From an uncultured Azospirillum sp. (GTDB lineage Bacteria; Pseudomonadota; Alphaproteobacteria; RF32; CAG-239), in contig CAMOQT010000001.1 of assembly GCA_946623145.1 (NCBI GenBank), positions 1 to 45,963 of the forward strand: a stretch of 45,963 nucleotides of DNA. Direction: 5' to 3'. The translations under genes and the position numbers were made by a program. Below are positions 1-27,395 of the stretch, piece after piece; the stretch's first letter is position 1; each line of letters starts with the position of its first letter. The notes beneath the pieces are model-generated. The model did not search any database. It was not told where the DNA came from and worked only from the letters and a program-made list of their open reading frames with translations.

Positions 1-857
1 ACTTTTCCGATTAGCTTACCATTGGCATCATACATGTTACCAAATTCATCTACTCTACCAATAATATTGCCATCTTTATCGTAGAGTATTTTTTCAGTTC
101 CTTTTGAAGCTGCTGCTTTACCTATTATTTTTCCGTTTTTATCAACAACGGTTCCATCCGGCAACATATTTCCGATAACATTACCATCTCTATCAACAAC
201 ACTGCCATCCGGATTAACATAACCGATAATATTGCCATTTTCATCATAAACTAAACGGCGATTTTCATCTGCACGGCCTTTTATACTTTTAGTAATAACA
301 TTGCCGTCTTTATCAATATATCCAACCACATTACCGTTTTTATCAACGACGCTGCCATCCGGCATAACAATTCCGATGACGTTACCATCCTTATCGATAG
401 CGACACGCCCTTGTTTGCTGACATGACCTATAATTTTACCGTCCAGGCCAACAACTTCGCCGTTTTTGTTTAAACGCCCGATAACGTTGCCATCTTTATC
501 AACGACACTACCATCAGACAGAACTCTTCCGATAATGTTACCATTTTCATCATAAACAAAGCCCGCATCAACTGCTTTACCGATGACATTACCATCTAAA
601 TCAACAACCGTTCCATCGGCCAAAGCCTTACCGATAACATTCCCTTCTAAATCGACAACTGTTCCATCAGCAAGAACGCGACCGATAATATTACCATTTG
701 CATCATATACTAATCTTGGATTCTCTGCAACGCCGATAATATTACCATTTTCATCAACGATCATTCCGTTAGCATTGACACGACCGATAATATTACCGTT
801 TTCATCTCGAACATATCCATCTTCATCTATTGTACCGATAACTTCGCCATTAGGACC
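1..857 (-). repeat. In-frame tandem coding repeat, about 51 nt (17 aa) per unit, roughly 17 units, continuing past the window edge
   Basis: Recurrent GNVIG/GNIIG cores, e.g. LADGTVVDLEGNVIGKA, LADGTVVDLDGNVIGKA, LSDGSVVDKDGNVIGRL, MPDGSVVDKNGNVVGYI. Track ORF 583..1176(+) is the antisense shadow of this periodicity. Confidence 0.85.
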
Positions 858-1529
858 TATGGCATATCGCGTATTTACCGTTTTTTCATCCACCCCTTTA
901 GCGCCGCCAATACTTGCAGTATCACAGAAATTACAATCTTCTTTACGAATAGCTTTACCTAAGACGGGAACTTTTTGCGATTTATTACTTGCTTTACTCA
1001 AATTAGCTTCACGCCATGTTATAATAAAGTTATTTTGGACATTGCCGGCAACGACAGGAATCCACTTCATTGTGATATCACAAGTTTCGTGGCCTCTCAA
1101 TGTTCTGTTTTTGCATAGTTCATTAAAACTAAAACCATCAAAGGGAGGCTCTGCCAATTCAACAGAAACAATTTGAATTGTTCCGCGTCCGTTTGTTCCG
1201 ATTGTTAAAACATTTTCAGCCTCTGTTCCTAAAACAACTTGCCCCATTTCAACCGGATCCGGTGTTGTTGTTATCGGAATTTCACCTTGATTAATATTTT
1301 CGAATTCAATGCTTTCTTCTTGTTCTGTCGTATTTTGCGATGAAAAAGCATCATCGTTTGATGTAAAAACAGGTGCGCTATATTGCTCTTCTTCTGCGTC
1401 ATCCTGCAGAACAAGCATTAATCCCAAAATAAAGATAATTAAAGAGATAATACCAACCATCAAAATAACATGGTTGGTTTTTCTGACATAACTTTCTGAA
1501 TGAGTTAAAATTTCTCTTTCATCACTCAT
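1..1529 (-). CDS. Membrane-anchored tandem-repeat protein at the VirB10/TrbI position of the T4SS cluster. The 5' end is complete; the gene runs off the left window edge.
   Basis: Absent from the ORF track because it has no in-window stop. My minus-strand translation from ATG 1529-1527 is open to position 1. This ATG overlaps the TGA of the virB9-like gene as ATGA. The product starts MSDEREILTHSESYVRKTNHVILMVGIISLIIFILGLMLVL (one TM helix). A beta-sandwich-looking segment follows (VVLGTEAENVLTIGTNGRGTIQIVSVELAEPPFDGFSF...LRGHETCDITMKWIPVVAGNVQNNFIITW). About 17 tandem units of the form L-x-D-G-x-V-V-D-x-x-G-N-V-I-G-x-x come after that. A VirB10 C-terminal domain is not visible because it would lie outside the window. 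Confidence 0.7.
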   Translation of the reverse strand, partial: MSDEREILTHSESYVRKTNHVILMVGIISLIIFILGLMLVLQDDAEEEQYSAPVFTSNDDAFSSQNTTEQEESIEFENINQGEIPITTTPDPVEMGQVVLGTEAENVLTIGTNGRGTIQIVSVELAEPPFDGFSFNELCKNRTLRGHETCDITMKWIPVVAGNVQNNFIITWREANLSKASNKSQKVPVLGKAIRKEDCNFCDTASIGGAKGVDEKTVNTRYAIGPNGEVIGTIDEDGYVRDENGNIIGRVNANGMIVDENGNIIGVAENPRLVYDANGNIIGRVLADGTVVDLEGNVIGKALADGTVVDLDGNVIGKAVDAGFVYDENGNIIGRVLSDGSVVDKDGNVIGRLNKNGEVVGLDGKIIGHVSKQGRVAIDKDGNVIGIVMPDGSVVDKNGNVVGYIDKDGNVITKSIKGRADENRRLVYDENGNIIGYVNPDGSVVDRDGNVIGNMLPDGTVVDKNGKIIGKAAASKGTEKILYDKDGNIIGRVDEFGNMYDANGKLIGK

Positions 1530-25683: not shown

Positions 25684-25778
25684 TATCCGAGTTCCTACGT
25701 GTTTTTTTGTTTCTTATCATACAGTTGGAAAATTAAATAATCAAGCACCGAGACGGACTTATTACCAACTACCATAAA

Positions 25779-27395
25779 CTACCATTTTTGATAGTATCTT
25801 TTCCAATTGTCATCTTCCTTTTTATTATCCTTTTCCGTAACAATTTTAACCGTTCTCACGACAAAAGAATTCGGCTCCCGATCAACAAATACAGTATTTA
25901 TTTTTTGATAAGGAACGTCGTTGGCCGTTAAAATATTATAGAGTAGATTTAGACGTTTTTGTTGTAATTCAAACGCTTTTGATCCATCTATGCGAATTTC
26001 AAGTCCCACATTCTTTTCATCGACAGCCTTACGCGCAAACGCTTGTATCCAACGCAACGTTTGCCCTGAAATTTCAGCACGATTAGGCTGGAACGATAAA
26101 CGAATTTCCGTAGGCAAAATTTGCGGGCGAATTTCTTCCGTCTCTTTTACCTGCTCACTGTTCATCAACTTATTTGTTTTTTCTTTTAAGTTCTTGATAG
26201 CTTTATCTCGATTTTCCTTAGAAAAAACAGATGTTATATTATCCAAAAAAGAATTTTCATTCTTTTCTTTAACTTTACTCTTGTTTTTCTTTGCCGGCGG
26301 AGAAAGCTTCCCTTCATCATTACTGATATCCGGAACGAGATCTTCTTCATCCAGCAAATCTTGCGGGATAGGTATTAACAAATTATCCTGAACCGCAACT
26401 TTAGCCGTTTTAGAGGTATCTGTTACTTTAGAAGGCAGCAATTTCTCTGCATTTTTCTTTGCTGATTCCGACGAAAACTTTTCACTAAGAAGTTTTTTGT
26501 TTTTTACATATTTGCTTCCTTTAGCCACTATCCATGGACTATCCGTGTGGTGTTTTTCCGCCATCGTTTGCCACTGCCGATTTTCAGGCTCTTTTTCAAC
26601 AACCTGATTTTCAGCCTCAGGCAAAGAAACACCGCCATCCAATGACGCTATCTGATTATCAGACGGCCGCTCTACACTTTCTTGTGAGATTTTTTCTTTT
26701 TTCCGATCATTCTGCAATGGAATAACATCATTTTCATTATCTACCAATTTAATCTCTTCCGGATTTTCTTTTTGGCGTAATCGTTCGTGATGCTTTTTCA
26801 AATTATCAATTTTAATAATTTGTTTATTGGCCTTAATAATGACAGGCTTTCCCGTCAAGTCCGGCAGCCGAGGCTCAACAGAAGCTAACTCAACCGGAAG
26901 ATTTTCCGTCTTTTCCATCTCAATAGGAAAGACTTCCTCTTGCGCTCCGGCAAGCGCCTCCGTTTTATTTTCAAGCCCTGCATAAACCAAGGGCACATCA
27001 GGAATTACCTCTTCTTTCTGAGGTTCATTTTCCGCTAAGACTTCTTCCGATAACGGCTTGTCCTCAATGACTAATGGTATTTCTTCACTATCAGACAATT
27101 CCGGTATATCGCTTACCGAGTATTCTGACGGCAAAGCCGGTATATTCTGTGCTATTTTAAGCTCTTCAGGCTTAAATTCAGGGGTTTTTAGCACCTCTTT
27201 GTATACAGGCTCTGTTTGAGAAGAAAATGTTTGAGGATGAGATTGACTGAAAAATAACGCTATATTTTTGTGAGGGATTTTGAGGTTTTCTTCAGTCTTT
27301 TCAGGGGTATAAAAGAAAGCTCTATCTGCCCCTATAATGACAGATAAAGTAAAAACAAAACTACAAACAAACGTTCTAAAACCTGTTTTGTTCAT
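25779..27395 (-). CDS. First gene of the array: membrane-anchored acidic/Lys-Pro-Glu-rich protein with a degenerate OmpA/MotB-like C-terminal domain (tentative)
   Basis: I prefer the ATG at 27395, with GAGAGGGG 8-10 nt upstream; the track start is 27464. A TM helix FRTFVCSFVFTLSVIIGA is followed by about 400 aa of low-complexity sequence. The C-terminus RLSFQPNRAEISGQTLRWIQAFARKAV...GLEIRIDGS...QQKRLNLLYNILTANDVPYQKI has OmpA_C-like spacing. It lacks the canonical TD..G..N residues. Confidence 0.45.
   Translation of the reverse strand: MNKTGFRTFVCSFVFTLSVIIGADRAFFYTPEKTEENLKIPHKNIALFFSQSHPQTFSSQTEPVYKEVLKTPEFKPEELKIAQNIPALPSEYSVSDIPELSDSEEIPLVIEDKPLSEEVLAENEPQKEEVIPDVPLVYAGLENKTEALAGAQEEVFPIEMEKTENLPVELASVEPRLPDLTGKPVIIKANKQIIKIDNLKKHHERLRQKENPEEIKLVDNENDVIPLQNDRKKEKISQESVERPSDNQIASLDGGVSLPEAENQVVEKEPENRQWQTMAEKHHTDSPWIVAKGSKYVKNKKLLSEKFSSESAKKNAEKLLPSKVTDTSKTAKVAVQDNLLIPIPQDLLDEEDLVPDISNDEGKLSPPAKKNKSKVKEKNENSFLDNITSVFSKENRDKAIKNLKEKTNKLMNSEQVKETEEIRPQILPTEIRLSFQPNRAEISGQTLRWIQAFARKAVDEKNVGLEIRIDGSKAFELQQKRLNLLYNILTANDVPYQKINTVFVDREPNSFVVRTVKIVTEKDNKKEDDNWKRYYQKW

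Follow-up and report, generated by a model that had tools for sequence, protein, structure and literature searches.

Can a type IVb (T4b) pilus machine and a VirB-type type IV secretion system (T4SS) that are written as one run of genes be regarded as a single system, or are they two machines that have come to share a strand? This question is raised by a 45,963-nucleotide (nt) stretch of contig CAMOQT010000001.1 (assembly GCA_946623145.1) from an uncultured bacterium labeled Azospirillum sp., referred to here as the window, in which 19 co-directional minus-strand genes run from position 27395 to the left edge. The preliminary description of the window counted the same 19 genes and took them to be a single operon-like unit in which pilus and secretion genes are fused. 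Comparison with related genomes does not support this as the nature of the system: most relatives carry the two modules side by side on opposite strands, and the fused layout of the window is derived. We favor the reading, with a probability of about 0.6, that the locus encodes two cooperating contact machines that were secondarily fused in the window's subclade.

Layout of the locus in related genomes

A species-level scan (one genome per species) recovered at least 180 genomes with a relative of the VirB module. Eighty loci were fetched (numbered here with the prefix L), and the 63 of these 80 VirB4-anchored loci that have at least 8 kb upstream are treated as informative. VirB4 has relatives in more than 120 database clusters at 79 to 93% identity, on contigs of up to 582 kb. 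The 80 fetched genomes are gut or rumen metagenome-assembled genomes from sources that include human, deer, chicken, and rabbit. They are labeled nearly always as Alphaproteobacteria, proteobacterium, “uncultured Azospirillum sp.,” or Candidatus Scatocola (Rhodospirillales incertae sedis in NCBI), and three carry the label Firmicutes. The group probably corresponds to the order RF32 of the GTDB taxonomy.

In the prevailing layout, found in 51 of the 63 informative loci, trbC (two or three VirB2 copies) comes first in the virB operon, ahead of virB3 and virB4, and the pilus operon is transcribed divergently from the other strand. The layout of the window is shared by three loci (L005 to L007), one locus (L039) is co-directional with the VirB2 genes kept, and eight have no pilus genes within 10 kb of virB4. 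Window-type genomes include GenBank CAKQSV01, JAFUXF01, and JAFUSU01 and the SHIW14-1 bin of ERZ28612953; typical sister genomes include CASFNK01 and a closed 1.86-Mb contig. The co-occurrence of the two halves that the preliminary description had put forward as a check is borne out, with the pilus module adjoining the VirB module in 55 informative genomes (87%) at VirB4 identities of 76 to 93%. In 57 of the 63, virB3 is preceded by two or three VirB2 copies, and among metagenome loci anchored on PilR, 24 of 27 informative ones have a divergent trbC beside the pilus operon.

In a neighbor-joining VirB4 tree rooted on the protein of a Microvirga plasmid, the window and L005 to L007 form one clade that is nested among the divergent-type genomes and is sister to L008 to L013; therefore, the fused layout is derived. 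L039 is placed elsewhere in the tree. The pilus operon has been inverted at least two times independently, each time still adjoining virB. The pilR-pilS-virB3 junction, which the preliminary description had proposed to seek in metagenome assemblies, is also present on the short contigs L085, L086, L087, and L142. Together with L005 to L007, these make seven independent assemblies that share it, which excludes an assembly artifact.

The 93-nt junction between the two modules in the window is the relic of a terminator; in relatives, that terminator comes after the last VirB2 gene. A motif, TTAAGAnATTnTTCATAAAAAAAAGGTATACT, is kept in all seven window-type loci that were aligned, and the same motif sits just after the last VirB2 gene in many typical loci. 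There, 120 to 150 nt upstream of virB3, it contributes the A-tract and the 5' arm to a strong hairpin that has a T-run. Window-type loci retain the A-tract and the 5' arm but have lost the 3' arm, the T-run, and about 80 nt, and their fold energy is about -2 kcal/mol compared with -17 to -29 kcal/mol in typical loci. The relic also holds a TATACT/TATAAT-like -10 box, which is perfect (TGTATAAT) in L005.

At the other end of the pilus operon, the first gene is preceded by about 75 nt that are conserved with typical relatives despite a different upstream neighbor. A strongly conserved block (TTGCCAAGAGTCGCA...) is found in this leader across the lineage, and the p561-trbC intergenic region of typical loci has a median length of 363 nt. 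One possibility is that the block binds a regulator, another that it forms an RNA element; the divergent virB promoter region could share it. The window's upstream neighbor, 97 nt from the array, encodes a secreted SH3-domain protein and is not found at this position in typical relatives, where the divergent trbC stands; it marks the rearrangement breakpoint. On this sequence evidence, the window layout would have arisen by inversion and deletion in one nested subclade.

Most junctions within the array lie between an overlap of 26 nt and a gap of 23 nt; the exceptions are four larger gaps rather than the three of 79 to 95 nt counted earlier: 79 nt between virB4 and the gene for helical protein 1, 93 nt between the pilin-like gene and virB3, 95 nt between the OmpA-fold gene and pilL, and 99 nt between virB8a and the virB7-like gene. 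The separate operons of L002 have counterparts of the 79-, 95-, and 99-nt gaps (86, 95, and 129 nt, respectively). Because the same gaps occur inside separate operons of relatives, these three are internal and mark no module boundary, and the 93-nt gap is the sole boundary among them. As described earlier, no terminator hairpin lies inside the array: a terminator scan placed no minus-strand terminator-like site in any array gap. Terminator-like counts were not above those in shuffled sequence (15 versus 10.6 ± 3.8 and 10 versus 7.8 ± 2.8), and a sigma-70 promoter scan was uninformative (56 sites versus 44.4 ± 7.4 and 48 versus 42.2 ± 6.8 in shuffles). With the leader retained, the hairpin lost, and the gaps without a terminator, the sequence would be compatible with a single transcript of pil and virB genes.

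The locus is chromosomal, as had been proposed. The scaffold that contains the window measures 97 kb and comes from a gut metagenome in the ENA; L001 is a stretch of it that reaches beyond the window. The right flank holds housekeeping genes (dnaX with the signal recognition particle [SRP] RNA, ybaB, recR, cmk, rsmI, and rsmE), and G+C is uniform over the array and its flanks. The 46-kb window, L001, L147, and L093 yielded no relaxase, VirD4, or integrase, and a search that also covered replication genes found none of these in the window, in the 10 kb past it, or in the relatives' loci. The lack of relaxase, VirD4, and integrase, the housekeeping flanks, and the even G+C argue against an origin as an integrative and conjugative element (ICE) or plasmid. 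In L047 (2847-9548), the same-strand housekeeping genes nusG/mscL and rimP-nusA-infB-rbfA directly precede virB3, and neither VirB2 nor pilus genes lie upstream; therefore, the chromosomal position of the virB module is not fixed.

Gene content of the two modules

Profile searches against Pfam and NCBIfam support nearly all of the gene-by-gene annotation given earlier, and VirB3 and the VirB7-like protein are supported by homology to a Microvirga plasmid (Table 1).

Table 1. Features of the window, listed in the direction of transcription of the array and followed by neighboring features (aa, amino acids)
Feature	Position	Strand	Evidence or remark
Co-directional array	1-27395	-	19 genes, from 27395 to the left edge
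Pilus-operon leader/promoter region	27396-27475	-	TTGTGCATAA...TGCTTGCCAAGAGTCGCA...AGAGGGGTTTATTTT-ATG
First pilus-operon gene (OmpA-fold)	25779-27395	-	N-terminal membrane anchor, long acidic linker, C-terminal OmpA/MotB/Pal-fold domain
PilL/TcpQ-family lipoprotein	25060-25683	-	Pfam TcpQ 1.4e-15; lipobox IISGC
PilN-family type IVb lipoprotein secretin	23454-25079	-	Pfam Secretin 1.2e-14; TIGR02520 5.8e-81
PilO (pilin accessory protein family)	22117-23430	-	Pfam PAP_PilO 1.2e-13 over full length
PilP-like protein, long coiled-coil N-terminal extension	20742-22142	-	NCBIfam pilP_fam 1.6e-6, residues 311-407
PilQ, GspE/PilB-type assembly ATPase	19033-20736	-	Pfam T2SSE 1.4e-65; GspE 1.2e-65; PilB 2.4e-63
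PilR, GspF-type polytopic inner-membrane platform	17911-19023	-	Pfam T2SSF 1.1e-22; membrane-span scan
Pilin-like bitopic protein	17370-17909	-	Pfam PilS 1.2e-3, Bundlin 4.5e-3, both under cutoff
Module junction, 93 nt	17277-17369	-	Relic of terminator following last VirB2 gene in relatives
VirB3	16986-17276	-	66% identity to L002 gene preceding VirB4; two hydrophobic segments
VirB4 ATPase, 811 aa	14561-16996	-	Pfam CagE_TrbE_VirB 1.6e-12; VirB4_CagE TIGR00929 6.1e-109
Secreted helical protein 1, 895 aa	11794-14481	-	Signal peptide, no membrane span; hypervariable
Secreted helical protein 2, 232 aa	11087-11785	-	Signal peptide; slot kept in 50 loci; no PDB/Pfam match
Secreted helical protein 3, 494 aa	9610-11094	-	Signal peptide; conserved slot; gene call in L001
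Secreted giant protein 4, 1560 aa	4909-9591	-	Signal peptide, no membrane span
VirB8 paralog a	4143-4898	-	Pfam VirB8 3.6e-12
VirB7-like lipoprotein, 62 aa	3855-4043	-	73% identity to L002; L002 ortholog lipobox LSAC
VirB8 paralog b	3093-3839	-	Pfam VirB8 2.7e-24; PDB VirB8/TrwG structures 6e-6
VirB9 with C-terminal SPOR	1526-3082	-	Pfam CagX 4.3e-11; SPOR 2.7e-5, 24.8 bits versus cutoff 21
Beta-flower repeat protein, N-terminal third	1-1529	-	Pfam Bflower_2 1.4e-30, ASH 2.3e-5; membrane-anchored
Secreted SH3_4/SH3_3-domain protein	27493-28005	-	97 nt upstream of array
tRNA-Arg(CCT)	31199-31275	-	Adjoins 387-aa ORF; no link to array
387-aa open reading frame (ORF)	31446-32609	+	Beside tRNA-Arg(CCT)
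Bacterial small SRP RNA	39736-39831	+	Directly upstream of dnaX; no link to array

In the pilus half, PilO, PilP, the GspE-type ATPase, and the GspF-type platform follow the TcpQ/PilL lipoprotein and the PilN secretin, which is the R64-type order. The secretin, which has a lipobox and is 28 to 30% identical to plasmid PilN and BfpB proteins, scores 272.6 bits against TIGR02520, just short of the cutoff of 287.65; the PilP-like protein scores 29.2 bits against pilP_fam, under its cutoff of 34.65, and has no Pfam match. PilR is the sole polytopic protein of the array in the membrane-span scan. The OmpA-like anchor proposed for the first gene stands at the level of fold, with no Pfam, NCBIfam, or PDB sequence match to its product. 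An AlphaFold2 model of the conserved last 120 residues has a pLDDT (predicted local distance difference test) score of 82, and Foldseek matches the modeled domain to OmpA-like, Pal, and MotB proteins (E value of 2e-5, probability of 1.00), so that the protein is a probable peptidoglycan anchor.

The pilin-like protein of the window has no prepilin cleavage motif (Gly-1/Glu+5) and is not the major pilin. In typical relatives, its ortholog is followed by a true PilS-family prepilin (Pfam PilS 4.7e-15, motif TG|RSMVE) and then by a 320-aa PilT-family ATPase, after which housekeeping genes begin. Neither the true prepilin nor the PilT-like ATPase is present in the window, and L005 to L007 have no room for them between pilR and virB3. 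A search for a prepilin peptidase in the window and in the examined loci of relatives gave none. Given the true prepilin and the PilT-like ATPase, the pilus of typical relatives is probably retractile. Besides VirB4, typical genomes carry at the locus three genes of the secretion ATPase superfamily, which are those for PilQ, the PilT-like protein at the end of the pilus operon (L093, 12713-13675), and VirB11 at the end of the virB operon (L147, 19084-20052); the window shows PilQ only.

In the secretion half, VirB3 is 29% identical (3e-8) to the annotated VirB3 of the Microvirga plasmid and has no Pfam match. The virB4 gene begins with TTG at 16996 and overlaps virB3 by 11 nt. The VirB7-like protein is 37.5% identical to the small lipoprotein encoded before VirB8 in the Microvirga plasmid and has no profile match. 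No VirB2 was found in the window or L001 by tblastn or by an iterative hidden Markov model search over all ORFs of at least 40 aa. The same holds for a VirB6-like polytopic protein in the window, L147, L002, and L001, where no ORF other than PilR (window) or VirB2 genes has three or more membrane spans.

Four secreted proteins fill the slot between VirB4 and VirB8, and their size pattern is kept across about 50 loci; the fourth is conserved at 1200 to 1650 aa, with 26 to 31% identity to L002. The helical proteins of the window are 30 to 42% identical to those of L005 (40% for helical protein 1), where VirB4 is 92% identical and the secretin 88%. Such divergence would be the signature of exposed, diversifying surface components. 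The N terminus of helical protein 1 matches a VirB5-family protein (PF07996) of Erythrobacter over 58 columns that include the signal peptide (hhalign probability of 92%, E value of 6e-7); no VirB5 match was found in the window with Pfam. A VirB6 identity was rejected for all four proteins, which have a signal peptide only, no membrane spans, and no TrbL/VirB6 match. They are also not called paralogs. Their N termini match in five of six pairs with hhalign probabilities of 79 to 97% (43% for proteins 1 and 2), but the matches are short and include signal peptides. PDB profile searches with helical proteins 1 and 2 and with the OmpA-fold domain returned coiled-coil noise only.

The earlier suggestion to look left of position 1 for VirB10, VirB11, and VirD4 was fruitful for the first two of these. 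The left edge of the window is a 100-N scaffold gap (L001, 13083-13182) within the anchored beta-flower protein, whose gene has an ATGA overlap with virB9 and is cut by the gap; the full protein has 1533 aa in L001. It is followed on the same scaffold by a second beta-flower protein of 2366 aa (L001, 16174-21557), the C terminus of which lies outside the stretch seen. This second giant is 46% identical over 1038 aa to the beta-flower-TrbI protein of L147, where the order is VirB9, an anchored beta-flower protein, the 1453-aa beta-flower-TrbI protein (VirB10; TrbI 1.3e-34, 14710-19071), and a VirB11-type ATPase (322 aa, T2SSE 8e-20), followed by genes on the opposite strand. On the basis of this match, the second giant on the window's scaffold appears to be the VirB10 ortholog. 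No VirD4 follows VirB11 in L147. The T4SS of the lineage consists of two or three copies of VirB2, VirB3, VirB4, the four secreted proteins, VirB8, VirB7, VirB8, VirB9-SPOR, the anchored giant, the giant VirB10, and VirB11.

The two VirB10 proteins differ in length, which indicates that the number of repeats in the N-terminal beta-flower array varies between genomes in a manner that recalls CagY. Homologs of the N terminus of the anchored beta-flower protein almost all end at contig ends, because the beta-flower repeats systematically break short-read assemblies, and L147 alone bridges the region.

Comparison with known systems

The best plasmid matches of VirB4 are found in Microvirga pMVF16-3 (38%), Erythrobacter aureus (35%), Sphingosinicella (35%), and Paracaedimonas, a member of the Holosporales (30%). 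The Microvirga and Erythrobacter systems share with the lineage the order VirB2-B3-B4, helical secreted proteins (one of them a PF07996 VirB5-family protein), a small B7 lipoprotein, and B8-B9-B10-B11. B7, B8, and B9 are recognizably homologous, and B9 is also enlarged in Microvirga (550 aa). Unlike the window system, which has neither at its locus, these plasmid systems are conjugative and carry a MobA/MobL relaxase and VirD4. They also differ from the lineage in having a single B8, a B10 of ordinary size, much smaller helical proteins, and no pilus module; no pil genes were found in the closest plasmid relatives of VirB4. In both Microvirga (L149, 22351-25218) and Erythrobacter (L152, 17469-19709), secreted helical proteins occupy the place of VirB5/VirB6 and a canonical VirB6 is missing; all that Microvirga has is a 228-aa protein that spans the membrane three times. 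The whole T4SS family, judged from these loci, may be without a standard VirB6.

T4b pili are known beside other classes of transfer system. The thin pilus of IncI1 plasmid R64 (pilI-V) accompanies a Dot/Icm-like transfer system, and pilL-V clusters lie beside genomic island (GI)-type T4SSs in PAPI-1 and ICEclc. The window shares with R64 the set and order of PilL/TcpQ, PilN secretin, PilO, PilP, PilQ, PilR, and a PilS-family pilin, as well as the encoding of a T4b pilus beside a T4SS. The best plasmid matches of the secretin (28 to 30%) are on a Thalassospira plasmid with a DotD/TraH I-type gene, on enterobacterial plasmids where it is annotated as PilN, and in the Bfp secretin BfpB. However, the partner T4SS here is of the VirB type (mating-pair formation class T, MPF-T) and not of the I or G type of R64 and PAPI-1, and it is chromosomal and lineage-wide, with no relaxase or coupling protein in view. 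The locus also differs from R64 in its extra OmpA-fold first gene, in the PilT-like ATPase of typical relatives, and in having no prepilin peptidase or PilV shufflon.

The likeness to the Rickettsiales vir homolog (rvh) system that was noted earlier is partial. The rvh system (Gillespie et al.) has a VirB8-VirB7-VirB8-VirB9-VirB10-VirB11-VirD4 run and large VirB6 paralogs after VirB3-VirB4, and it has no VirB5. The order from VirB8 to VirB11 (VirB11 from L147) and the presence of large proteins after VirB3-VirB4 are shared, but the large proteins here are without membrane spans, the first has a VirB5-like N terminus, and no VirD4 follows VirB11. Membership in rvh was rejected on the lack of VirB6 paralogs and of an adjacent VirD4, on the seeming presence of a VirB5-like element, and on the nearest plasmid relatives being non-Rickettsiales, namely the conjugative systems of Microvirga, Erythrobacter, and Sphingosinicella.

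Among T4SSs for host interaction, Cag of Helicobacter has a giant repeat VirB10 (CagY), and Trw of Bartonella has amplified, fast-evolving surface subunits and no VirD4. The lineage resembles them in its 1453- to 2366-aa repeat VirB10, its two or three VirB2 copies, and its hypervariable secreted proteins. In contrast, only the VirB core is shared in sequence, the repeats are beta-flower units, and a host-cell target would be hypothetical here.

The preliminary description knew of no T4b pilus paired with a VirB-type T4SS. Literature on T4b pili with VirB-type T4SSs and on the T4SSs of gut Alphaproteobacteria likewise yielded no description of this system or of such a pairing. The component parts, and a T4b pilus that serves a T4SS, are already known; new are the VirB-type partner, the chromosomal conservation throughout the lineage, the SPOR and beta-flower elaborations, and the fused layout.

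Proposed cooperation of the two machines and the alternatives

We favor cooperating machines because of the divergence of the helical proteins, the giant VirB10s and surface subunits of Cag and Trw, and the contact role of T4b pili, which are the contact organelles of the R64 and PAPI-1 transfer systems. The ancestral state is a pair of divergent operons, pilus and virB, sharing one control region of roughly 360 nt. In the window's subclade, the pilus operon was inverted together with its own leader, the locus lost the VirB2 genes, true prepilin, and PilT-like ATPase, and the terminator and proximal promoter region before virB3 became truncated. The genes from virB3 onward now lie directly after the pilus genes and are probably read through from the pilus promoter. 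In operation, the OmpA-fold protein would anchor the T4b pilus to peptidoglycan, and the pilus would contact and hold a target surface and, in typical relatives, probably also pull the target in. The T4SS, decorated with fast-evolving surface proteins, would then act on the target by adhesion or protein delivery, and selection would keep the two machines adjacent. The arrangement would parallel that of R64, whose thin pilus serves the plasmid's transfer system, except that its purpose would be interaction with other cells or a host instead of conjugation. The gene content, synteny, direction of the evolutionary change, and loss of the hairpin are shown by the sequences, and co-transcription, functional coupling, and the kind of target are inferred.

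Several points weigh against cooperation. Read-through at the junction is something that we infer from the arrangement of the sequence, and the -10-like box in the relic could act as an internal promoter. VirB2, prepilin, PilT, prepilin peptidase, VirB6, and VirD4 may lie elsewhere in the genome, and the functional interpretation would then be a different one. The adjacency may be historical rather than functional, and two observations that speak against cooperation, the eight informative genomes with no pilus module within 10 kb of virB4 and three pilus loci without an adjoining virB, also fit two independent machines that were aligned by chance through a local inversion in the subclade. The position of virB3 in L047 and the conserved leader or promoter region and terminator that each module has of its own in typical loci point in the same direction. 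We consider such independence possible but unlikely, since the adjacency persists in most informative genomes over a wide range of VirB4 identity and has survived two independent inversions, and since the deletion of the hairpin is consistent with joint transcription having been selected for, or at least tolerated. A single hybrid machine, in which the secretin, GspE ATPase, and GspF platform would work with a VirB3/4/8/9/10 core and replace VirB6, VirB2, and the T4b pilin, would account for the window-type loci lacking VirB2, the true prepilin, and the PilT-like ATPase, for PilR being the sole polytopic protein where no version of the locus has a VirB6-like one, and for the co-directional layout with its broken terminator. 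It is quite improbable: sister genomes hold complete, separately organized sets (VirB2 copies, prepilin, and two extra ATPases), the missing genes may lie elsewhere in the genome, the related conjugative system of Erythrobacter is also without a canonical VirB6 at its locus, and no known structure joins a secretin to a VirB core. For the composite machine with two outer membrane conduits that was suggested earlier, we likewise found no positive evidence, and typical relatives have separate ATPases, filament subunit genes, and promoter regions for each machine.

Two further alternatives assign the locus to DNA transfer. The 35 to 38% identity of VirB4 to plasmid proteins from MobA/MobL-VirD4 systems with the same B2-B3-B4...B7-B8-B9-B10-B11 order, and the service of T4b pili in conjugation by R64 and PAPI-1, would suit a conjugation system or ICE remnant with the pilus as a mating-pair stabilizer, as in IncI plasmids and PAPI-1. 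That origin is highly doubtful given the lack of relaxase, VirD4, integrase, and replication genes, the L147 operon ending after VirB11, and the occurrence in at least 180 species on long chromosomal contigs that have even G+C and are flanked by housekeeping genes. Conjugation systems also do not typically have hypervariable giant surface proteins or a duplicated VirB8. The lack of VirD4 and relaxase at the locus would suit a DNA-uptake (competence) apparatus made of a ComB-like T4SS and a type IV pilus, and type IV pili commonly capture DNA, with ComB of Helicobacter being a VirB-type uptake system. This is the least probable of the alternatives. VirB11 is present in L147, and ComB is without it and also has no giant surface proteins. 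The pili known for DNA uptake are of a class other than T4b, and a role in surface interaction is indicated by the beta-flower giants and the four hypervariable secreted proteins.

If the machines do cooperate, the pair would extend the partnership of T4b pilus and T4SS from I- and G-type conjugation systems to a VirB-type system without a relaxase at the locus. It is conserved in most of the at least 180 species-level genomes of a group of uncultured gut and rumen Alphaproteobacteria that is widespread in humans, ruminants, and poultry and whose biology is essentially unknown. The hypervariable secreted proteins and the giant VirB10 and VirB2 derivatives make it a strong candidate for a means of attaching to, or acting on, host cells or other microbes, and the divergent and fused layouts provide a natural experiment on the co-regulation of two envelope machines. 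An improbable, more speculative extension is that the fusion, combined with the loss of the retraction ATPase and of both filament subunits (VirB2 and T4b prepilin), marks a hybrid, nonpiliated machine in the subclade and, more broadly, that the pilus-T4SS pair would be the organelle that defines the lineage and serves a lifestyle dependent on contact (epibiotic, predatory, or attached to mucosa).

The VirB2 derivatives were seen in many typical relatives, where the third VirB2-like gene before virB3 encodes a secreted protein of 1000 to 1800 aa (L008, 6438-9479; L065, 4090-9495; L039, 5163-9506). This protein has no Pfam match. Its N-terminal half is a coiled coil and its C-terminal half is rich in Cys, with a VirB2-like hydrophobic hairpin embedded between the two, so that from its sequence it looks like a giant VirB2 fusion.

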